DNA of 63,514 nucleotides, the filler included, from Folioceros fuciformis (taxonomy: Eukaryota), in the NCBI GenBank assembly GCA_049999805.1. It is 12 parts of 12 records of this genome, joined end to end, with 100 filler letters (N's around TTAATTAATTAA, not from the genome) between each part and the next. Parts side by side here need not be neighbours in the genome. Positions count along the whole stretch, not along the records: positions 45,011 to 55,638 come from JBNGIO010003489.1; 11 more parts are not named here. One strand, given 5' to 3'. A program made the translations under genes and the position numbers. How positions within the stretch are numbered: position 1 is the first letter of the stretch; the number at the start of each line of letters is the position of its first letter. Of the stretch, positions 1-53,342 are shown piece after piece. The notes beneath the pieces are model-generated. The model was not told the origin of the DNA. It was given only the letters and a program-made list of their open reading frames with translations, and ran no database searches.

Positions 1-203
1 GTCAAGAGTCTGTAAGGACACGGAGCATGAGACAATCTGGTTCACGCAAGGCAGCGTGATTCCGCACCAGATTGCTCTTAGGAAGAAGAGACTTAAGGTC
101 TTGTGAGTAAAACTCTAGTCAGAAGCAGTCTGGTTCTTTCAGACATTTATCAGGTGTGAGTACTCAAGAAAGGATTGAGTGTCAACCTTGAGTGGTGGCA
201 AGA

Positions 204-3200
204 ATGGCCAGTGACAGTATTAACCAGATCGTACAGGAGAAGCTGGACAAAAACAACTTCCATGCCTGGAAGTTTCGTTTTACAAACTTTCTTATGGGAA
301 AGGGTTATTGGGACTACATTGAGGGGGAGCATGAAAAACCCCCTGTAGTACTTGAACGGAATGCAACAGCGGAGCAGATTAAGGCGCTGAAGGATTGGAG
401 TCAAGGATCTCGGAAGGTCATGTATTGGCTGTCAATCAGCATTCATGACACCATGATTGGGCACATACAGGATGCAGAGTCGCCCAAAGAAGCATGGGAT
501 GAGTTGGTAAAACTCTATGAGACTAACACGAAGGCGAGAAAACTGCAGTTGAAGAATGACTTCAACACAGTTATGAAGAAGAACTTATCAATCAATGAGT
601 ACGCGTTAAAGATCAAAGGGACAGTGGAGTCCCTTGCGTCCATTGGTGTCAGTGTGGAAGATGATGACAAGGTCGAAGTTTGCTTGCGCGGGTTAACACC
701 TGCCTACAAGCAGTTCAAGACTTCCATACAGACTCGGGAAAACATTCCCAATTTCTCAGACCTGATTTCTATGTTGATCATAGAGGAGAAAAACCTAGGC
801 GAGGAATCATCCTCTAAGCCTAAGGAAAACTCTGAGCAGGCCTTCTACTCTGGCAGAGGCAGAGGTAGAGCCCAAGGTGGCAGAGGGCAAAGAGGTGGTA
901 GAGGTCGGAATCCCTACCAAAATCAACAACAGAATCAGGAGTCCCAGTACAAGAGTACACTGGAAGAGGAGAAAATTCTCGAGGCTGGGGGAGTCAAAGA
1001 GGACGTGGAAATCAACAACAAAATGATGCAAATGCAGACAATAGTGGTTGCTNNNNNNNNNNNNNNNNNNNNNNNNNNNNNNNNNNNNNNNNNNNNNNNN
1101 NNNNNNNNNNNNNNNNNNNNNNNNNNNNNNNNNNNNNNNNNNNNNNNNNNNNTGGAAATCAACAACAAAATGATGCAAATGCAGACAATAGTGGTTGCTG
1201 GAATTGTGGTAGGTTAGACTACTTCGAAAGAGACTGTCCAAGGAGAAATCAAGGCAACAGGAGGCAGCAGAACAATTATGCCTCTAGCAGCAGTCAGAAT
1301 GACTTAGAAAACTTGTTTGTCATGCAGCATATGCTTAACTCTATGTCTGCTAATGGATCCAACAATGGTGAGATTGTGTGGTATGTGGACTCAGGAGCTT
1401 CGAACCACATGACATGCCATGGGGAGTGGTTCAAAGAAATGCAAGTGCTTGACAAACCTGGATATGTAGAAACTGGAGATGACACAACACATGCAATTGT
1501 GCATACAGGAACTGTACCTCTGAAGATGCAGGATGGCAAAGTGAAGTGCCTGGTAGATGTTCTTCACGTACCCAACATCACAAAGAACTTGGTGTCAGTT
1601 GGGCAGATGGTTGAGCAAGGACTGCAGGTTAGATTTACACCTGCAGGACTCTTTGTTGAAGAGTGCAAGAAAGGCGGTCGCCTGATTGCTCAAGGACAGA
1701 AGGTTGGACGGATGTTCACCTTGAACGTGGAGGTTCCTAAGCTGAAGTCAGCCATGTTTGCGAAGGGTACAAGGGTAGTGAAAGACCTAGAGATGTGGCA
1801 CAAACGCATTGGACATGTAAATGTGCAGAAGTTGAAGTCCATGCAGCATCAGAAGGTTGTCACAGGCATACCCAAGCTTACAGAAAATGGACTGCAAGGT
1901 ATATGTGAAGCATGTCAACTTGGGAAACAGCCTAGGAATGCGTTCCCCCATGACAAACATGTCAGCAGATATGTGTTGGATGTTGTGCATTCAGATGTAT
2001 GGGGTCCTACACAGACTGCATCAATCGGAGGCTGCAAGTACTATGTGACCTTCATTGACGACCACACAAGGAAGGTGTGGGTCTATTTCATGAAAAAAAA
2101 AAAGTGAATTGTTCACTCATTTTCATACTTTCAAGGCGATGGTTGAGAAGCAGATAGGTAGGCACATCAAATGCCTAAGATCTGATGGAGGGGGAGAGTA
2201 CTTCTCCAGAGAGTTCAGCAAATTCTTATCAAAACAGGGCATTCAACGGCAGTACTCATGTCGTTATACGCCACAACAAAATGGAGTTGCAGAGCGCAAG
2301 AACAGGCACATAGCAGAAGTGGCGAGAGCATTAATGACAGAGAAGAAGATGCCTCACTACTATTGGGCTGAAGTTGTAAGCACAGCAGTGTACATCATGA
2401 ACAGAACTCCCATAGCAGCGGTGCACAGTGTAACACCGGAGGAGAAGTTCACAGGGAAGAAACCTGACTTGTCACACTTAAAGGTATTTGGTTGCATTGC
2501 TTATGTCCATATTCCGGATGAGTTGCGGACTAAGCTTGATCCAAAAGCAGAAAAGTGTGTCTTCATTGGGTATTCTGTTACACAGAAAGGATACAGGTGC
2601 TACAATCCCTCGAGTCCTACGAGCTCCACAGCTGTGTCTCGCAAAGGGAAGGAAAAAGTCCAGGATTCAAAGATACCAGACCTAAGTGCAGGTGCGGATG
2701 ATTCAAGCGACTCTCAGCAAAGCTTGGATGAGGAATTCGGTGTACCGAAAATCGAAACACCTGGTGCAAAAGAGGTTCAATCAGCCCCTGGAAGTGGTTC
2801 AATCCCACGGAGATCTGGAAGGTAGAAGGTTCCAATACAGCGGTTGACCTATGATAGCTATGTAGCTAGGCACCATGCCTATATGGCAAAGGTTGTACAG
2901 GATGTGGAACCAAGAAGCTTTGAAGAAGCTATTGGAGACACAAAGTGGGAACATGCTATGGATGAAGAAATGAATGCGTTAAATCAGAATGCAACATGGG
3001 ACTTAGTACAACTACCTGAAGGCAAGAAACCAATAGGTTGCAAATGGGTGTACAAGGTCAAACACAACGCAGATGGTAGTATCAACAGGTACAAGGCAAG
3101 GCTTGTGGCCAAGGGATATGCCCAGACATATGGAATAGATTTTGAGGAGACGTTCAGTCCAGTTGCCAAAATGGCAACAATTCGAACCGTGATCGCACTA

Positions 3201-4436
3201 GCGGCATCGAAAGGTTGGGTCCTACATTATATGGATGTGAAGAATGCGTTTTTACATGGAGAATTGCTGGAAGAAGTATACATGGACCAGCCACCAGGAT
3301 ATGAGGATTTGGATCATCCAAATCATGTGTGCAAGCTGAAAAAAACGTTGTACGGACTGAAGCAAGCCCCGAGGGCTTGGCATGAGCGTCTTGCTCAGCA
3401 TCTGATTCACATCGGATTCAACATGGCAGATGCGGATCATTCGTTGTATGTGTGCAAAAGTACAAAACGACTAGTCTTTGTGACCATTTATGTGGATGAT
3501 CTAATCATTGGAGGTAATCAGTTGGATCAAGTGGAGCAGATCAAGGAACTTCTACAACAAGAGTTCAAGATGGCGGACCTAGGTGAACTGAGGTTCTTTT
3601 TGGGCATTGAAATTATACGAACCAACACAGGCATTTGGCTGTCACAGCGGAAGTATGCGTCGGATGTACTAACTAAGTATGGTATGGTTGAGTGCAAGCC
3701 AATCTCGATTCCTTTGGATCAAAATCTAAAGCTCAGTGCTCATGATGGTGAAGCACTTGAAGATCCAACAATGTACAGGAAGATTGTGGGTAGCTTGATA
3801 TATCTCACTCTATCCCGACCAGATTTGAACTATACAGTGGGATTGCAAAGTCAGTTTATGCAGGCGCCAAGAAAGCCACATTTGGATGCAGTAAGGCGAA
3901 CGTTGCGCTATGTGAAGGCAACTATGGATCATGCTCTCTTTTATGTTGCAGATTTAGAAATAAACCTGTGTGGGTACACAGATGCAGATTGGGCAGACAG
4001 TGTTACTGATCGTAGATCTACAAGTGGATTCATTTTTTCACTTGGGAGTGCAGCAATTACATGGAGTAGCAAGAAGCAGCCTACAGTGGCTTTGTCTAGT
4101 ACAGAAGCTGAATACAGAGGCGTAGCAATGGCAGCGTGTGAAGTGACTTGGATTTGTAAGTTACTCGGAGATTTTGGATTGCAGGTCAACGACATGGTTG
4201 TTATCTACTGTGACAATCTTAGCAGCATACAATTGGCGCGAAACCCAGTGTTTCATGCCAGGACAAAACACATTGAAATACATTATCATTTTCTTCGCGA
4301 AAGGATTTTATCTGGAGCTATTGATCTTGTGTATGTCAACACAGACGAGCAGATAGCCGATATATTTACTAAGCCAATGGGAGCAAAGAAGCTGAAGAAA
4401 TTCCGAGCTATGTTAGGCGTACAGATGCTATGTTGA
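204..4436 (+). pseudogene. copia gag-pol polyprotein, disrupted
   Basis: gag (KLDKNNFHAWKF), zinc knuckle CWNCGRLDYFERDC, protease WYVDSGASNHM, integrase HSDVWGP / RSDGGGEY / QQNGVAERKNR, RT YKARLVAKG / YVDDLII, RNaseH TKHIEIHYHF / ADIFTK. Frameshifts near 945 and at the A-run 2093-2103, stop TAG at 2823, and the expected RDVVFDE segment after GYRCYNP (~2610) is missing. Confidence 0.93.
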
Positions 4437-4686: not shown

Positions 4687-4786
4687 NNNNNNNNNNNNNN
4701 NNNNNNNNNNNNNNNNNNNNNNNNNNNNNNTTAATTAATTAANNNNNNNNNNNNNNNNNNNNNNNNNNNNNNNNNNNNNNNNNNNN
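4687..4786. other. artificial contig linker; the same linker occurs at 6359, 16462, 20658, 27301, 30184, 31674, 36265, 43121, 44911 and 55639
   Basis: 100-nt block of Ns with a central TTAATTAATTAA (stops in all six frames), seen 11 times. Confidence 0.97.
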
Positions 4787-6358: not shown

Positions 6359-6458
6359 NNNNNNNNNNNNNNNNNNNNNNNNNNNNNNNNNNNNNNNNNN
6401 NNTTAATTAATTAANNNNNNNNNNNNNNNNNNNNNNNNNNNNNNNNNNNNNNNNNNNN

Positions 6459-23090: not shown

Positions 23091-24889
23091 TGTTAGCGAG
23101 AACTTCAAGGGAGTCTTTCCCTAGAGTCTATCCTCAGGCCAACTATCACAAAGGTATTGCCACACACCTACAGCAACACAACAACCATTCACAAGGGAAG
23201 CAACTTGCAGGGGTGCCCATGGAAGAATATAAGCCCTCCGCCAAGATATTATGAAGAAGGAAGGGAGCCACATGATGAAGGAGGAGAGGAAAAAGCAAGG
23301 TCTCTCACTTTTTTTTGGTTGCAAGGGAGCTCAAGAGCGTATTTATACCCTCTAGAAGAGATCCTAAGGAAGCTTCATAAGAAGCTCACAAGAAGCTGCG
23401 CAAGGAGCTTCCTAAAGATTAGTTTAAACTAATCTAGACAAATAGTAATTAATTAGACACTAATCTTAGACTAAACACATTAGTCTAAGCACATTAGGCT
23501 TTAATAACCTTATAACCTCCCACTTAAAGGCCAATTTACCTTCATAGGAGAGTGGTCTACCTCATGCCCATGAGTGTCCAAGCTTGTGTGAATTGCTCCG
23601 TAGAGAGCCCCTTGGTAAGAATATCTACAGGGTTCTAACTTGTGTGAACTTTGACAAGTTGTACCCTCTTGTTTGTCGACACCTCTTGAATGAACTGATA
23701 CTTCACTTCCACATGTTTGGTCTTCGCATGAAACACTGGATTCTTTGCCAATTGGATCACACTCTGGCTATCACAATGCAACACTGGCAGCTCAACCTTG
23801 ATCCCCAAGTCTCCCACTAAACGAGCAAGCCACATGGCTTCCTTGCAAGCCTCAATTGCTGCAACATACTCGGCCTATGTGGTAGATAGCATTATTCACG
23901 ATTGCAAACAAGATTGCCATGAGACTGCCCCTCTAGTGCACATGAAGACATAACCTGATGTGGACCTTCTTTTATCCATATCCCTTGCATAATCTACATC
24001 CGTATATCCAACGACAAATGCATCTTCACTACCAAAACATATGCACAAAGCTTTTGTACCATTTAAATACCTCATAACTCCTTTTACTGCCTCCCAAAGC
24101 TTCTTGCCAGGGTTTGACATAAACCTATTAACCACTCCCACTGCAAAAGTTATGTCAGGACGTGTAGCAATCATTGCATACATCGAACTCCCTATAGCTG
24201 ATGAGTATGGAACCTTCTCCATTTTAGCTTTGTCCTCTGCAGAGCTTGGGCAATTCTTGCTCGAAAGTTTCACATATGAAGGCAACTTAGTACTCAATAC
24301 CTTCCCCTTCTTGATATTGAAACGTTGAAGCACCCTGTTAATGTATTTAGTCTGAGACAAGTAAAGCAAATGCTTATGTCTGTCTCGACGAATACACATG
24401 CCAAGAATATGGGTGGCCTCTCCCAAGTCTGTCATGTCAAAGCGAGCTTGCAACTTTGACTTCAACGTTGAAATCTCATCACTGCTATTCCCAACCACTA
24501 GCATATCATCCACATAGAGGACCACAATGAGCAAGATTTCATCCTTAGCTTGCTTCGTATAGAGGCAATGATCCTCATCGCTACGTTTGTAGCCTTGAAA
24601 AAGCATAAATGAGTGGAACTTGTAATACCACTCTCTAGGTGCTTGTTTAAAACCATAAAGGCTCTTTTTTAACCTGCACACCAAATTCTCTTTGCTGCCC
24701 TTCTCAATGAAACCCTCTAGTTGCCACATGTATACCTCTTCTTGGAGATCACCATGCAGAAATGCCGACTTCACATCCATCTGGACAAGTTCTATGTCAT
24801 TCCTTGCAACCAGAGCATGAACACATCGCAAGGTGGTTATTTTGACAACTGGTGAGAAAATCTCATCAAAGTCAATACCTTGCTGTTGC
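23091..24889 (-). mobile_element. Ty1/copia (Tnt1/Tork-like) 3' fragment: RT, RNaseH and 3' LTR (~23091-23515)
   Basis: GIDFDEIFSPV, QMDVKSAFLHG, LYVDDML, VPYSSAIGS, AKTKHVEVKYQF with stops; PPT-like AAGTGGGAGG on the minus strand at ~23516-23525. Confidence 0.92.
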
Positions 24890-47545: not shown

Positions 47546-48734
47546 AATTGGAATTGGTTGGGTACACACAAGGTCCGGTACGTTGAAAGACGCGTTTACG
47601 CAAGAATGTCCCATTGACTATGCATGCCCACACCATACGAGCTAGCTCCGATGCCGCAGCCCAAGCAACTTTAGCATAGCTATGTGCATGGCCAGAATCG
47701 CTGGACGTCCTCACCTAATTACCAGGCCAGCCAGCCTTGTTCGCCATGACTCTGACTGACTGAGGGTTCTGCATGTTCAAAACCGATTGAGGTGTCCTTC
47801 CGCAGGCCTGCCCAAACATCGGCTGGTGGTTGCAAGTTGAAGGCATTATAGCGTTCCCTGACTCCCCAGAATTCTGATTGCTGCAATGCTACAGGGTGTT
47901 CGACTGCGAATGGATCAAGTGCAAAAGAACAGCCAGTACAAACCAAACCCCATGCTTACCTGGGTCTCTAAGGCATTCCGTTCAGGGTTTAGCCACAGTA
48001 CTTCCGGGTTGCACACATTTCATGTCTGGCCCAGTGCTGGGAGGTTCACCACTGGACTTGCACATCTGGAAAGGCTGATCTCTGAATTTGATGTTGGAGT
48101 TGCAAGTTTGAATGATGATAGAGTAGCATGGATAGAAGAGACCTTGGCGAACCGAACCGGAGGAAGACAAATTATACGTATCCTGCGTCTCCTTGAAGAC
48201 CTTTCATCGCAGGTGCTATCTTGATTTCCCCTCAGAAATAGTGTGCAGCAGTTGCTTTGATTTCCTTCAAGAAGAAATAATGTGCAGCAGCTGCCGTAGT
48301 TCTTCAAGGGCTGGTGGCCAGCAGCAGCAGTCCCTGTGGTTCTTCAAGGAAGAGCGTGCAGCAGTTTTGTACAAAGGTTTACTCCGCTGAAAAAAAGGGC
48401 GACCACGTCTGGCAACAATTTTTTCGGTAGGTACCATCTTGTAGGACAAGAGACGAGATAAGAGAAGCTTACATTCGGCTGACTTCCGGCGGTGTGAGGC
48501 TTGTGCATCCATACGACAATAAAGTCGCAAAAGCTCTCTCGCAATTCCACTGCTGCTTCCAACCGTGTCTCCATCATCTCCGTGTCTCAACAGGCTTTCA
48601 AGTGATCTTTCTTGCCCTTTCGGCGCTTCAAGTTGCATACGAAGTTCAAGGTTGCAACCACCGGCACACCAATTGTGTCACCTAACACGGGCTACACTTT
48701 GAACCTCCTCTACATTTTCCTTCTTCCTCTCTCC

Positions 48735-51700
48735 TCACGGTCGACCATTACAACTGCAAGCCCCAGCAGTGAATCGATGCACACGGTACCCATCCCTGAC
48801 AACTATGTCTCTCTGTTCAATCCTTGACATGATCTCCGTGGATCTGTGGCAGTCGCTGCACATGCGAAGATTCTTGGTTACCACCAGAGGTGTCCCACTG
48901 GGAGTGTTCAACAGACCAAACGCCAAAGCTAGCTTCTCGGCATGGCCACAAAGCGCATTTTCCTTTTCCACCTCGCCCAGTGGCTTCAACACCAACTTTG
49001 TGTGAGGCACATGTTCCCCATCCCGTTTCAAACGTTCATTCAAGCTCTCCACCTTAAGAGCAATATCCTCTCTCCTGCATCCCACCAGAAATTGGTGCAC
49101 CTCCCTCCTCACCTCAATGGTTGCCACCGCCGGTTTCTTGTTAGCCCCTGCTCCCCTCCTCCGATTTTCGATCCTGTCTACATCGAGCCACCTACCCGCA
49201 TCAGCGTAGGCATTGGCCATGAGGACATAGGCAGGCGCCCCCTGGGGGTCCAGCGTGACGATGCTTTCAAAACACCACATGGCCCTCTCTATATCCCCGT
49301 GATTTTTGCAGGCATTCAACAAAGACGTCAAGGCCACAACATTACGTCGGGCCTCACAAGATAACAGCATCTTCTCTGCCTCATCTAAATGGCCAGCACG
49401 CCCAAGAAGGTCAATCATGCAGGTGTAATGCTCAATAGTTTGTTGGATGCCATGCTGTTCAGCCATGGAATCAAAATGCTTACGACCCTCGTGGACCAGT
49501 CCCTCGTGACTGCATGCTACTAAAACGCAAGTGAATGTAGCACCATCAGGCTGAATGCCTGCAGCCAGCATATCGTCAAAACAAGCCAGTGCCTTGTGAC
49601 CTTCATCACAAGCACCGTAGCCAGATATCAGGGCAGTCCACGTCACCACATCCTTGGCAGCCATGCTGTCAAAGACCTGGCGTGCATCTTCTATTTCACC
49701 AAATTTTGAATACATGTCCACCAGGCAGTTGCCTAGCACAAGGTTATCCAGCAGTCCTCTTTCAACAATCTGAGAGTGCAGCTGCCTGCCCTTCTGTAGA
49801 GCACCAGTGCTTGCACAGGCCTTCAGCAGGCAAGCTAAAGTGACATGGTTGACCAAAATTACGCCCTCCTCCTCCATTTGTCCCAAAAGAAAGAGTGCCT
49901 CACGTCCCAGCCCTTGTTCGGCGTACCCAGCTATCAGGGCATTCCATGTCACCACATTCTTTGTCGTCATGCTGTCAAAAACCTCGCGTGCATCTCCCAA
50001 TTCACCACATCTTATATACCCAGATATCAGGGCATTCCATGTCACCACGTTCTTTGTGGTTAAGCTCTCAAAGACTCGGCGTGCACCTTCCAGTTCACCA
50101 CATTTAGCATACATGTCCACTAGGCTGTTGCCCAACACTACATCATCCAGCAGACCCCTTTCGACAATCTGCGAGTGCAGCCATCTGCCCCACTGTAAGG
50201 CACCAGTGCTTGCACAGGCCTTAAGGAGGCAAGCAAAAGTGACATGGTTAGCCGAGATCAGGCCCCCCTGCTCCATTTGTCCATACACAAGAAGCATCTC
50301 AAGTGCAAGCCCTCGCTGTGCATACCCAGCTATCAAAGCATTCCAGGTCACCACATCCTTCGTGGCCAAGCTTTCAAAAACGCGGCGGGCATCTTCCAGT
50401 TCACCACATTTTGCATACATGTCCACCAGGCAGTTGCCCACCACTACGTTCCCCAGCAGACCTCTTTCGACTATGAGTGAGTGCAGCTGTCTGCCCTTCT
50501 GTAAGGCACCGGTGCTGGCACAAGCCTTGAGAAGGCAAGCAAAACTAAAATCATTAGCCAAAAGTTGGCCCTCCCGCTCCATTTGTTCGTACACAAGAAA
50601 CGCCTCGTGTCCGAGTCCTTGCTGGGCATACCCAGCTATCAGGGCGTTCCATGTCACCACGGTCTTCGTGGGCATGCTGTCAAACACCTTACGTGCATCT
50701 CCCAATTGGCCACATTTGGCATACATGTCCACGAGGCAGGTGCCCACAAATAAGTCAGGAGGAATGCCACTGTACAACACGTCACGATGCACATTTCTGC
50801 CAGATCCTAAGTCGGCAGCAAACGCACAAGCTTGAAGGACAGCTACAAAGACGTGAGCATCCGCCTTGACTCCTGACCTACGCATCTCGAGGTACAGTTG
50901 TATCGCCACATAAGGTTTCCCATGCTTAGCATATGCAGAAATTATGGAAGACCACATGAAGGCATCTGGTTTGCCTACCCTGGTGAACACATGCATGGCC
51001 TCCTGTAGCCTACCCCCAAATGCATACATGCGCAAGATATGGTTTCCCAGGTATGTGTCCGACTCGTACCCGAGTTTGACAGTGAGGTCATGAACTTGGC
51101 GCCCAACAACCAGATTTCTCTTAGCTGCACAGAGCTTTAGCACAGTGTAAAGCAGAGACTGAGAAATAGGTGAGTCTGTCTCCGCTAGAGATTCCAGGGC
51201 TCCAACGGCTTGGGAAAGCTTACCCTGCTGGCATAACGTGCTCACGGTTGCAGCAGTAACGACGCACATTTCTGATCTTTGGCGCTCACCAGGTTCAGAC
51301 TTATCCCAAGAAGAGGTAGAGGCGGGAGGAGGGGCACCATGACTCTTCTGCCAATCCAAGGAAACGGGCTGGTCATGTACCCGAGCCGCCTTAAGCATGC
51401 ACTGGACCTCGCCGGATCCCTTACTGGGCGAACGGCAGCTCACCTTATGTTGTCTGTTGTCCCACCACATGGTGGGGTCCCGAAAAAATTGTTGCCACAA
51501 GTCCTGCTGCTCTTGTCCCCGTCCCTGGCGACGACCATCATCGCTGGTGGGAAAAGCGTTCCTACCCACACATTTTGTGGGACGTGCTGCAAGTGCTGGG
51601 CTTCGAGTCCTTCCACTGCTGCACCTGGAGGCTTTGTTTGCCGACGTTGGCCTCCCTAACATGAGGAGAACAGCGGGAGCTTCTGGTAGAACACCTGTAT

Positions 51701-51758
51701 ACACACCAAGTACCATTTGTTGGGTCCACACCGGGTTCGGTTGCCATACCGTTGCCAT
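48735..51758 (-). CDS. intronless PLS-class PPR protein with E1-E2 and a DYW:KP (GRP-type) deaminase domain; candidate organellar U-to-C RNA editing factor, 1007 aa
   Basis: about 17-19 P/L/S repeats, KKPAVATIEV box, short gating region, HAEKLA, CSDCH, C-terminus CSCNGRP. Confidence 0.96.
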   Translation of the reverse strand: MATVWQPNPVWTQQMVLGVYTGVLPEAPAVLLMLGRPTSANKASRCSSGRTRSPALAARPTKCVGRNAFPTSDDGRRQGRGQEQQDLWQQFFRDPTMWWDNRQHKVSCRSPSKGSGEVQCMLKAARVHDQPVSLDWQKSHGAPPPASTSSWDKSEPGERQRSEMCVVTAATVSTLCQQGKLSQAVGALESLAETDSPISQSLLYTVLKLCAAKRNLVVGRQVHDLTVKLGYESDTYLGNHILRMYAFGGRLQEAMHVFTRVGKPDAFMWSSIISAYAKHGKPYVAIQLYLEMRRSGVKADAHVFVAVLQACAFAADLGSGRNVHRDVLYSGIPPDLFVGTCLVDMYAKCGQLGDARKVFDSMPTKTVVTWNALIAGYAQQGLGHEAFLVYEQMEREGQLLANDFSFACLLKACASTGALQKGRQLHSLIVERGLLGNVVVGNCLVDMYAKCGELEDARRVFESLATKDVVTWNALIAGYAQRGLALEMLLVYGQMEQGGLISANHVTFACLLKACASTGALQWGRWLHSQIVERGLLDDVVLGNSLVDMYAKCGELEGARRVFESLTTKNVVTWNALISGYIRCGELGDAREVFDSMTTKNVVTWNALIAGYAEQGLGREALFLLGQMEEEGVILVNHVTLACLLKACASTGALQKGRQLHSQIVERGLLDNLVLGNCLVDMYSKFGEIEDARQVFDSMAAKDVVTWTALISGYGACDEGHKALACFDDMLAAGIQPDGATFTCVLVACSHEGLVHEGRKHFDSMAEQHGIQQTIEHYTCMIDLLGRAGHLDEAEKMLLSCEARRNVVALTSLLNACKNHGDIERAMWCFESIVTLDPQGAPAYVLMANAYADAGRWLDVDRIENRRRGAGANKKPAVATIEVRREVHQFLVGCRREDIALKVESLNERLKRDGEHVPHTKLVLKPLGEVEKENALCGHAEKLALAFGLLNTPSGTPLVVTKNLRMCSDCHRSTEIMSRIEQRDIVVRDGYRVHRFTAGACSCNGRP

Positions 51759-53342
51759 CGTTCAGGATTGGGTCGTTTGGAGATTCATGCATGGCCAGGC
51801 CAAGCCAGGCTCGGCTCCCCCCGCACCCGCCGCCGCCCGGCCCCTCAACTCAGAGACTTGACCGAACCTTTGAAAACGAGAATCGCCGCAGCAAAAAGCT
51901 CATGTTGCTAACCATCCATTGCCTGAGCTGCGGGCATGAACTTTAACCGTATAGACAGGGGCGGGGGAAATGAGCCCTTCGGTACCATTGGTGACTCAAC
52001 ATTTGCACCTGTCCCACCCACCGAGAAGCCTGCCGTCTAGGTTTGCTGCAGTTCAACAATGCCGCAGCAGGCCAGCATGATCCAAGACATGTCATCTGGG
52101 GCTCCTATGAACGTGCACGTCATCTTTGAATCCCTGAGAGCGGGCCCTAAACAGTCTGATGTACAAGCTTGATGCTAGCGATGTCTGCAGATATGGGCAC
52201 GGGCTGCGCGGACCATGCTGTTCTCGCTAGGCAGAAGGAATTAAAGGGGGTCGCCAAGAAACCCGCAAACGTGACATCCGCGTGCCTGATTGTTTGCTGC
52301 TGGTACCAGCGTACGGAGGCTTTACCTGCCTCAAATTGTTAGAGGACTCTCGGTTCCGTTCCAGGATCTGCTTCATGCTGTGGTACTCCAGTCAACCACT
52401 TCACTCCCAAGAGGCTGGTCCGCGTGCTGCCCAGTTCCAGTTTCGTTTAGCGACCCCTGGTCTTACAAGCTTTCGACCACAGATCCGGATCTGGGCACCC
52501 AAAACGCATTTGATCAGATGAGTGTGCCGGATTCCTCCTCGCTTCTTGTCACCCATTCATTTCGGAACAGGACAAGTTCAACTTTGGGTAACTTCGTTTT
52601 CACATATTCCACTGCCTCTGCCTGCCTCATGAGTCAACCGAGGACGCTGGGAGCCATGAGTTTCTTGAGAGCGACTTATTCCTACCATTCACAGCATTCA
52701 CTCATGGACATTTACGAGTCTGGATACTCCTAGTTGGGGAGGGAGCAAAGTTAAAAAAATATTTTTCTAAAATATGAAAATAGACACTCCCAATCCCTAT
52801 GATCCAACTCTATAAATATTATATTTTCATTATTATTTAAATTTAATTATTAACATATTATAATAATCACAAGATCATATTGTCTAAACTTCTGGAGAGC
52901 TACCAAGGTGAATGACCTGCGTGCCTCTCACTTATGGTCTTGAATAGGGTTTGCACTCAAAGAGCTACATGCATCTTTGTGGTCGGGTCCAGAAACAAGC
53001 TCCCACAATCTTTCAACTTGGGAGACTTGATCTTGCCCCATGGGTTGGATACAAAACATTTATGTACGACCACCACCATGGTTGTACACCTTATCACTCT
53101 CCAAAGCCGTTATCCTAGCCATGTGCACATGTAGGTGGGCCAATGCACCTTAAGCTAAGCACTATGCTATGACAATGAAATGTTTTATGCAATACAAGTA
53201 CAAGATGCTAAGTATTAATTCTATCTTACTTAGTATTTATCCAAGGCCTGTAGACCATATATAGTAAGGAATAGTGCTATCTAGTCTCAAAGACCAATGG
53301 CTGTCTATTAAGATCATTTCTATATGTTGCTAAACCAGGTAG

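Follow-up and report, generated by a model that had tools for sequence, protein, structure and literature searches.

The question raised by this locus is whether a hornwort gene for a putative U-to-C RNA editing factor carries, ahead of its PPR array, a motif known from plant organellar single-stranded DNA-binding (OSB) proteins, and what such a motif would represent there. A preliminary description had proposed its presence in the window, that is, the whole stretch of 63,514 nucleotides from Folioceros fuciformis (G+C about 50%) analysed here. The explanation considered probable is that an organelle-targeted PLS-PPR gene of the DYW:KP kind carries a decayed relic of a PDF unit, a module that regularly caps the N-terminus of proteins in a PPR subfamily of mosses, ferns and the hornwort lineage.

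The gene and its N-terminal motif

Translation of the window gives a single ORF of 1007 aa on the minus strand (48735-51758, stop codon 48735-47), with the following parts:

48735..51758, minus strand: PLS-class PPR, E motif and DYW:KP (GRP-type) ORF (Pfam: PPR 3.9e-92, E_motif 1.7e-12, DYW_deaminase 8.6e-31)
51507..51758, minus strand: residues 1-84, presequence-like N-terminus by residue composition and AF2, putatively for organelle targeting
51426..51506, minus strand: residues 85-111, well-preserved first half of the PDF unit, QDLWQQFFRDPTMWWDNRQHKVSCRSP (HMM positions 2-28)
51438..51446, minus strand: AAG|GTGAGC, a donor-like junction where moss-like PDF-PPR genes have their conserved phase-0 intron
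51279..51425, minus strand: residues 112-160, the PDF unit's second half and tail, eroded (MAFFT alignments A1 and A3; outside the HMM alignment)
49302..51266, minus strand: PPR (PLS) repeat array, residues ~165-819 (Pfam PPR, PPR_1, PPR_2 and PPR_3; AF2 helical repeats)
49113..49301, minus strand: E motif, residues 820-882 (Pfam PF20431, positions 1-63 of 63, 1.7e-12)
48738..49013, minus strand: DYW-family deaminase domain of the KP/GRP kind, residues 916-1007 (Pfam PF14432, 8.6e-31)

By Pfam and by the residues read, the ORF has a PPR array and E motif together with a DYW domain in which HxE and CxxCH are present, as in PLS-class editing factors. Its DYW domain contains KKPAVATIEV, HAE and CSDCH and ends in GRP (..CNGRP); compared with the moss-like locus L048, KKPAVATIEV replaces KKDPGQTWIEV and HAEKLA replaces HSEKLA. 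With the PG box replaced by K-P, HSE by HAE, and with the GRP end, it has the marks of the GRP variant of DYW:KP. The accessible text of PMC9478123 gives the GRP/DRH naming, HAE as a KP hallmark and the GRP variant of hornwort DYW:KP, from which the designer KP2/KP3 U-to-C editors were derived. The PLS array, E motif, HAE, CxxCH, K-P replacement and GRP end of that variant are all as in the window, whereas that same part of the paper makes no mention of an N-terminal PDF unit in these hornwort proteins. Judged from its sequence, the window gene is a candidate U-to-C RNA editing factor of probable hornwort origin.

Residues 1-72 contain 1 acidic, 8 basic, 13 S/T and 9 A residues. Pfam recognises no family in the N-terminal 195 aa, where the motif indeed lies outside the standard PLS-E-DYW architecture, and none other than PPR, E, DYW and TPR-like families in the whole ORF. 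The OB/SSB-like fold that marks the OSB family is absent from the ORF by Pfam. The peptide quoted in the preliminary description was found in the minus-strand ORF where it had been placed: the L87 codon starts at 51500, WWDNR forms residues 98-102 with codons at 51454-51467, and K105 ends at 51444.

The resemblance of residues 85-111 to the OSB PDF motif was supported by several searches. They follow the first-half pattern LW..[LF]F..P..WWDNR..K, and the back-translated WWDNR pattern occurs a single time in the window against an expectation of 0 from 100 shuffles. From 30 non-PPR proteins, 79 motif copies were taken to build a PDF HMM of 45 columns (consensus.e.LWk.Lf.nP.eWWDNR.nKkNPK.PDFKHK.TGEALWLns.p). 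Its positions 2-28 (the first 27 of 45 columns) aligned to residues 85-111 of the ORF with a score of 33.2 bits (i-E 1.7e-12 at Z=1), which carries some selection bias as the training proteins had been retrieved with the window's own motif. None of 20,000 shuffles of residues 1-165 scored above 11.9 bits. Additionally, among 1325 six-frame pieces of the window, the ORF alone scored (E 1.1e-9; runner-up E 0.49). A phmmer search with residues 61-165 against 1,835,955,588 representative proteins returned 37 matches at E<=0.001, three of them at <=1e-10, and both xWDxR and the PDF tripeptide were present in 35. The exceptions were P0032, a metagenome ORF with the half motif, and P0035, a nematode repeat protein dropped as a spurious match to the low-complexity linker. 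Sequence comparison thus confirmed the window motif as a genuine relative of the PDF motif.

Other searches returned no relatives. Word-indexed protein searches, which need several shared 5-mers, gave 169 candidates and 0 matches for residues 40-165 among proteins of near length, and 2 candidates and 0 matches for the N-terminal fragment among longer proteins. A metagenome scan with the window's own N-terminus yielded 53 pattern matches and 0 relatives. Neither the word-indexed nor the phmmer searches recovered a hornwort protein bearing the motif from the protein databases. Pfam has no PDF-motif model, assigning 0 families to PDF-only proteins. Searches of PDB by sequence found no solved PDF-motif structure, with no match at E<=0.01 for the OSB-like protein P0009 and weak unrelated matches alone (E>=0.01) for P0038.

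Relatives in mosses, ferns and OSB proteins

The preliminary description had suggested that a family of editing factors carries this module, and such a PPR family does exist. Nine of the eleven PDF proteins of 754-2400 aa are PPRs, from sources including Adiantum, Ceratopteris and Sphagnum; named members are an Adiantum capillus-veneris protein and a 25-member Sphagnum cluster. Moreover, 67 moss-like loci were found in metagenomes, 56 of them with the first half present, and a PPR array follows 125-588 nt downstream on the same strand in 39 of the 40 loci with at least 1200 nt of downstream sequence. In L048, the PDF unit, PPR array, E, E+ and DYW form one ORF. Mean identity over 36 pairs is 0.68 in the PDF unit vs 0.70 in the rest of the protein. 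The motif is not exclusive to the window gene, as intact N-terminal units occur in fern, Sphagnum and moss-like PPRs. No description of a PDF-PPR fusion was found in the open literature; the primary OSB paper, the papers defining DYW:KP and supplements may mention one.

A PDF unit lying behind the presequence and ahead of the first PPR, as characterises this subfamily, is found in the window gene in eroded form, collinear with L048, Sphagnum and ferns in alignment A3. The order presequence, PDF unit, PPR array is common to the window, the moss-like loci L048 and L001, the Sphagnum proteins of 841 aa (P0054 cluster) and the fern proteins P0015, P0041, P0043 and P0046; the Sphagnum and fern units are intact and these proteins have no DYW. 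The K-V junction is shared by the window, Sphagnum and L048. Several differences accompany these likenesses: P0039 and P0040 have three PDF units ahead of the PPR array whereas the window has one, and the unit abuts the first PPR in moss-like proteins whereas in the window and in ferns there are a linker and additional N-terminal repeats. The window protein ends in a KP-type domain, which was never the case among the PDF-PPR relatives found. Intact PDF-PPR proteins end in a canonical DYW (moss-like loci) or have no DYW (Sphagnum, ferns), so the module is not KP-specific, and a special link to U-to-C factors is not supported by the intact examples found.

The OSB proteins offer the other comparison. 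The PDF motif of Arabidopsis OSB1-4 is the same motif as residues 85-111 of the window protein; OSBs are plant organelle proteins, as the window protein is predicted to be. According to the accessible parts of two reviews, OSBs have an OB fold followed by C-terminal PDF motifs, and the OSB1 PDF motif binds ssDNA (PMC6963530, PMC4166229). OSBs carry one to three or more such motifs behind the OB/SSB-like fold; in contrast, the window has a single N-terminal unit without an OB fold, fused to PPR-E-DYW and eroded in its PDFKHK/ALW half. In the OSB-like matches, the PDF motifs follow the OB fold on its C-terminal side and lie past about residue 180; the capture of an OSB targeting exon, which had been offered as one origin of the module, was rejected on this ground.

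The donor-like site and the eroded half

On the minus strand, AAG (K105) is followed by GTGAGC at 51443-51438. The donor-like site pointed out in the preliminary description is therefore present, and it marks a real and conserved intron position in the moss-like loci, most of which retain the intron. GT follows the first half in 53 of the 56 loci; in all 36 split loci, a GT..AG phase-0 intron comes after WWDxRxxK, with AG preceding exon 2. These introns are 137-351 nt long, with no bias to multiples of three, and interrupt the motif at precisely the point occupied by AAG|GTGAGC in the window. At the same junction, the intronless loci L048 and L042 carry AAG|GTAAAT (V-N) and AAG|ACAAAT, respectively. 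The window has GTGAGC at this position but no separate exon 2; its codons are collinear with moss exon 2 in alignment A3 (KVSCRSP vs KVNPKYP/KVNARYP, then L, W..S...P, SW...E and PG..Q). Since its codons are collinear in this way and intronless moss copies read AAG|GTA, the window gene is most likely intronless at 51443, with GTG coding for Val106, and the collinearity speaks against use of this donor here.

The second half of the unit, judging from the alignments and the structural model, is eroded. P111 stands at canonical spacing (xWDxR, eight residues, P), and residues 111-116 read PSKGSG where PDFKHK is expected. The PDF tripeptide and KHK are absent from their place 13 residues after the xWDxR start, and the HMM alignment ends at the P. 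The PDFKH core had been described as apparently deleted; it is indeed lost, but by substitution with PSKGSG rather than by clean deletion. Residues 112-160 consist of SKGSGEVQCML, a 12-aa insertion, WQKSHGAP, a 6-aa insertion, SWDKSE and PGERQ in MAFFT alignments A1 and A3. Over the region of the TGEALWL strand and P.WV..L tail, scattered identities alone (GE, L, W..S...P, SW, E, PG.Q) remain; the alignment of this half rests on these few identities and its placement differs between A1 and A3. AF2 predicts for the window protein a helix alone at pLDDT 65-74, then values below 50 for residues 100-155 and helical repeats above 90 from residue ~169; residues 112-160 have no strands and, like residues 40-76, stay below 50. 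The intact L048 unit reaches pLDDT 76-92 with helix, strands and helix. From disorder in an AF2 model, loss of function can be argued only weakly. When the L048 model was compared with PDB by Foldseek, PPR and TPR-like structures alone were returned, which was uninformative on the fold of the PDF unit. The window copy may be largely eroded and vestigial.

Further evidence came from contigs of unrecorded type in four sequencing runs of the source lineage (X1, X2, X3 and X5). Dozens of contigs match the first half at 85% nucleotide identity or more, these being short contigs not assigned to a PPR or DYW:KP origin. They pile up over bin 51413-51543 and leave the adjacent bin 51282-51412 almost empty. 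Contigs of paralogues, which differ from the window at 51474/51481, number 55 in X1, 88-90 in X2, 66-68 in X3 and 68-72 in X5, and in three X2 contigs the shared first half leads straight into K-KSTCSPDFRR. At the nucleotide level the first half is strongly conserved, which argues against junk status for at least that stretch.

These observations allow the competing explanations to be weighed. If the AAG|GTGAGC donor were used, exon 1 with the presequence and half motif would be spliced to an in-frame acceptor further downstream, such as one following TGGCAG at a distance of 96 nt; the eroded half would then be intron, and the mature half motif would meet the linker or PPR array. The coincidence with the intron of the 36 split moss-like loci favours this, as does the sequence itself, GTGAGC being a good donor by the plant consensus. 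Furthermore, X1 record 7 ends at 51444, where paralogue similarity stops; this contig end fits a splice junction and a paralogue de Bruijn branch point equally. Donor use is nevertheless judged unlikely, as no exon encoding ..RYPDFKHK.. lies in any frame of 51000-51443, the two remaining minus-strand frames of 51000-51900 contained no hidden exon for PDFKHK, and the ORF stays open in frame for 60 codons up to the PPR array. Those codons, including Val106 and Pro111, align with the relatives' exon 2; the AAG|GTAAAT of intronless relatives and K-KSTCSPDF, read directly in paralogue contigs, also weigh against it.

The half motif might alternatively be a working module, with selection in hornwort-type factors preserving the helix-WWDNR for protein-protein contacts or import, irrespective of any ssDNA binding. 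The near-perfect profile match of the first half beside a decayed remainder, the contig pile-up next to a nearly empty linker bin and the helix still predicted by AF2 agree with this. However, the pile-up could equally reflect recent gene-family expansion or paralogues with the full motif (KSTCSPDFRR), and the window copy may be a young decay product, leaving a half-module function conjectural and this explanation improbable. Least credible is a chance resemblance or an untranslated leader, in which case translation would truly start further on, at M121 or M164, leaving the motif in no protein. Long open frames do occur at the G+C of the window, but the HMM score far exceeds every shuffle, the database-wide search yields PDF proteins almost exclusively, the relatives share the layout, and initiation at M164 would leave no targeting sequence.

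Proposed function and implications

In the preferred explanation, that of a decaying relic, the gene would be nuclear and its product organelle-targeted, with one PDF unit of ~65 residues between presequence and PPR array, derived from a module that is regular as an N-terminal cap in a PPR subfamily of mosses, ferns and the window lineage. An intact unit is predicted to comprise a helix (LW..FF), a three-stranded sheet (WWD / DFK / ALW) and a short helix, abutting the first PPR repeat. The window gene would have retained the helix and WWDNR..K stretch, with the DFKHK and ALW strands substituted and the 12- and 6-residue insertions breaking the unit. AAG|GTGAGC would mark where a phase-0 intron once lay; that intron would be absent here, and GTG would give the valine that opens the relatives' "exon 2". 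At the 5' end of the PPR footprint, the intact unit may contribute additional binding to single-stranded nucleic acid, irrespective of sequence; alternatively, it may tether the factor to nucleoid ssDNA. A role on RNA is speculative, since OSB proteins are reported, in the accessible text of PMC4166229, to prefer ssDNA to RNA. The window copy has probably lost such binding, and its first half may be kept for folding, import or protein contact.

A more far-reaching possibility, put forward tentatively and with more doubt than confidence, is that the PDF unit is an ancient functional nucleic-acid-binding cap that predates the split of mosses, hornworts and ferns and couples editing factors to ssDNA or nascent transcripts at the nucleoid, the first half having its own role in hornwort KP factors. 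Such a cap would have gone unnoticed because domain libraries lack a model, an intron splits the motif and N-termini are routinely trimmed in assays.

The finding bears on annotation, as the intron inside the motif makes prokaryote-style gene callers yield truncated "hypothetical proteins", for example the P0032/P0049 cluster, and the motif is missing from Pfam models. Additionally, PPR editing factors are usually viewed as PPR array, E and DYW, with N-termini regarded as mere targeting signals and removed; in the accessible text of PMC10482289, designer proteins and heterologous assays omit the native N-terminus, and heterologous editing by PPR56 works without it. A conserved PDF-like module directly on the first PPR would offer a handle on the way in which editing factors reach transcripts or nucleoids, and it bears on whether native N-termini improve engineered editors.

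The PPR gene of the window and its partial PDF motif

The PPR gene is a single open reading frame with a long PPR array (Pfam PPR, 3.9e-92) and the following features.

48735-51758, minus strand: PPR gene, one translated open reading frame of 1007 codons
Residues 820-882 of its protein: E motif (Pfam, 1.7e-12)
Residues 916-1005 of its protein: DYW-family deaminase domain (Pfam, 8.6e-31)

The DYW domain reads KKPAVATIEV, where the canonical counterpart in the moss-like metagenome locus L048 is KKDPGQTWIEV. It has HAE in place of HSE, followed by CSDCH, and the protein ends in GRP. In hornworts, DYW:KP proteins occur as DRH and GRP variants, so called from their three C-terminal residues, and HAE is described as typical of KP (PMC9478123). 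Because KKPAVATIEV, HAE and the GRP end match this description, the gene is classed as GRP-type DYW:KP and is a candidate U-to-C editing factor of probable hornwort origin. An OSB identity was ruled out because the OB fold is absent; in OSB-like proteins, by comparison, the PDF copies sit behind an OB-fold region. No Pfam family matches the N-terminal 195 residues, of which residues 1-72 (one acidic, eight basic) fit a putative organelle presequence. A 342-aa open frame antisense to the PPR array (49807-50835, plus strand) is most likely a by-product of repeat codon composition and not a gene.

The preliminary description reported an OSB-type PDF motif before the array. The quoted peptide is present exactly, with L87 starting at 51500, WWDNR at residues 98-102 and K105 ending at 51444, directly after which the minus strand reads GTGAGC. 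When residues 61-165 were searched with phmmer against 1.84 billion representative proteins, 37 matched at E<=0.001. Of these, 35 contain both xWDxR and a PDF tripeptide, usually in 2-11 tandem copies that follow an OB-fold region, and are OSB-like. The remaining two are a nematode protein, judged spurious, and a metagenome ORF holding half the motif. A 45-column HMM, built from 79 copies in 30 non-PPR matches, aligned positions 2-28 with residues 85-111 at 33.2 bits (E 1.7e-12, Z=1), a significant score that bears out the motif. Its training proteins were found via the window's own motif, which brings some bias, and the database-wide E-values are independent of it. None of 20,000 N-terminus shuffles exceeded 11.9 bits, and the PPR ORF alone scored among 1325 six-frame pieces of the window. 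Neither a Pfam model (N-terminal 195 residues and PDF-only proteins checked) nor, by sequence search, a solved structure of the motif was found. The motif lies outside the standard PLS-E-DYW layout. It is partial: its first half matches the profile and its PDF core does not.

Other features of the window include an uninterrupted 777-aa ORF (P0002; 58567-60900, plus strand) with two RNase_PH domains, PNPase, KH and S1 (Pfam), predicted to be a complete polynucleotide phosphorylase with a presequence-like N-terminus. This single-exon gene lies 7 kb from the PPR gene along the joined stretch, which is unusual for a plant nuclear window. A copia-type LTR retrotransposon occupies 192-4436 (plus strand; broken into four ORFs: gag, Pol_BBD/pre-integrase, integrase/SH3 and RVT_2), and a second RVT_2 fragment lies at 23896-24831 (minus strand). 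Thirteen pairs of 44-N runs with 12 bases between them look like a masked repeated element rather than assembly gaps, although two such pairs (4687-4730 with 4743-4786, 6359-6402 with 6415-6458) coincide with inter-part filler. The other N runs comprise eight of 100 N and three of 10 N.

PDF-PPR proteins in other plants

Among the 37 phmmer matches, two PPR proteins carry PDF motifs at the N-terminus.

P0015, Adiantum capillus-veneris: PPR protein with 2 PDF units
P0039: 1371-aa PPR-E protein with 3 PDF units

A follow-up search with the three P0039 units against proteins of 754-2400 aa gave 11 matches, nine of them with Pfam PPR families and none of these nine with the Pfam DYW family. They derive from Adiantum capillus-veneris, A. 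nelumboides, Ceratopteris richardii, a 25-member Sphagnum cluster, one EukProt transcript and other assemblies. Additionally, the half-motif ORF (P0049) led to 67 moss-like metagenome loci, representing about 31 groups when clustered at >=98% identity. The first-half pattern is present in 56 loci and a DYW match in 26. Among the 40 loci with at least 1200 nt downstream, a same-strand PPR array begins 125-588 nt further on in all except L013. In-frame stops inside the first half mark seven of the 56 loci (L003-L005, L009, L010, L015, L055) as pseudogenes, so the family includes many of these. L048 is an uninterrupted ORF with a presequence, a complete PDF unit, PPR, E, E+ and DYW (Pfam DYW, 9.3e-46).

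A PPR family carrying the module is therefore upheld by nine of 11 long PDF proteins and 39 of 40 testable loci, and the motif is not confined to the window's gene, since fern, Sphagnum and moss-like PPR proteins carry it. The proposed special link to KP-type factors is not supported. Intact moss-like ORFs end in CSCMDYW, CSCMGYW or CSCRDYWQ, so that they and L048 have a canonical DYW, whereas the window's protein has KP/GRP. As the module accompanies PG-type DYW, no DYW and KP/GRP, it is not tied to KP-type domains.

The PDF motif is restricted to green plants according to a review (PMC4166229). Three proteins (P0026, a Biecheleria cincta transcript from EukProt, P0021 and P0025) consist solely of 4-12 PDF-like repeats, one being from a dinoflagellate transcriptome. 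The OSB-like P0003 (Kingdonia uniflora, 1160 aa) has 13 PDF tripeptides, 12 upstream of its OB-fold-like region and one downstream, the opposite of the typical arrangement, in which the OB fold comes first.

Protein database searches recovered no hornwort protein with a PDF motif. Contigs of four public runs (kind unrecorded) were placed on 48400-52300 at >=85% likeness and pile up over the motif bin 51413-51543, with nearly none in the adjoining bin 51282-51412. Those differing from the window at 51474 and 51481 number 55 (X1), 88-90 (X2), 66-68 (X3) and 68-72 (X5). One error-free X1 contig stops exactly at 51444, and three X2 contigs run past the shared K into KSTCSPDFRR (hand translation), a putative paralogue whose PDF tripeptide is correctly spaced. 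These short contigs suggest that the first half is common to many putative paralogues and that the window's copy departs where its erosion starts.

The donor-like site and erosion of the window's copy

The AAG/GTGAGC at K105 could be read as a splice donor, and the moss-like loci bear on this directly. GT directly follows the first half in 53 of 56 loci, and the second half (xNxRYPDFKHK...) was detected within 900 nt in 38. In 36 of these, 137-351 nt (median 270.5) separate the halves, with AG immediately 5' of the first exon-2 codon in every case and lengths without bias to multiples of three. As judged from sequence, this is a true phase-0 intron after WWDxRxxK, exactly at the window's position. 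No second half was detected in the other 18 loci, nine of which end within 400 nt and nine of which are divergent or decayed. In many of L001-L047, the intron (L001, 7228-7519) holds a second, degenerate first-half copy (HWQKFFSGPSHWWNSVSRLEK) in an open frame shared with exon 1. A GTAAGT of its own follows this copy, which may represent an alternative 5' exon or the remnant of a tandem duplication.

An intronless junction can mimic a donor merely by having a valine codon at the start of exon 2. The two intronless loci read AAG/ACAAAT (L042, T-N) and AAG/GTAAAT (L048, V-N); exon 2 of the split relatives L058/L059 likewise starts V-N, and Sphagnum proteins at the K-V junction also read ..EKVNARYPDFKHK. 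The codons after the window's K105 align gap-free to the relatives' exon 2 (KVSCRSPSKGSGEVQCML vs KVNPKYPDFKHKKTQEAL). In this alignment, scattered identities follow beyond a 12-residue insertion (WQKSHGAP vs WLNSNLNP) and a 6-residue insertion (SWDKSE vs PWVEAE; PGERQ vs PGTVQ), and no other frame of 51000-51443 holds a PDFKHK-encoding exon. Most likely, then, no intron interrupts the window's gene at this point, and GTG encodes Val106.

The PDFKH core, described as apparently deleted, is indeed missing, but by substitution: the first half matches the profile almost perfectly, P111 keeps its canonical spacing, PSKGSG stands where PDFKHK is expected, and the insertions break the unit. AlphaFold2 models (the same 25-row alignment) differ accordingly. 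L048 is confident (10-residue pLDDT blocks 76-92), with a helix (..EKLWREFFL), short strands (WWD, FKH, AL), a helix (VDAELAA) and, about 10 residues on, the first helix of the PPR array. The window's protein retains the first helix alone (residues 76-93, pLDDT 65-74), and residues 100-155 lack strands at pLDDT <50. The window's copy is a relic, largely eroded and perhaps vestigial.

Possible role of the PDF unit

The gene is assigned to a known class (PLS-DYW:KP, GRP) and carries a partial PDF motif. Within the open full-text literature searched, no paper describes the PDF-PPR fusion; a term search of the main text of a survey from 2026, on domain fusions of editing factors, gave neither OSB nor PDF (PMC13386178).

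Motif homology, place in the architecture, family, intron position and erosion being established, a role can be proposed. Across nine intact moss-like genes (36 pairs), the second half and tail show about the same conservation as the remainder of the protein (identity 0.68 vs 0.70), an argument for function in intact units. According to reviews, the OSB1 PDF motif is sufficient to bind ssDNA, and OSBs favour ssDNA over dsDNA or RNA (PMC6963530, PMC4166229). Counting against a required N-terminal role, PPR56 is reported to edit in E. coli even when its N-terminus is missing (PMC10482289). Where a PDF-PPR protein has an intact unit, this would cap the PPR solenoid at its N-terminal side, which corresponds to the RNA footprint's 5' end, and could supply a non-specific contact to single-stranded nucleic acid or retain the factor on ssDNA of the nucleoid. 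The window's protein has probably lost such a role, and its first half would persist for another reason.
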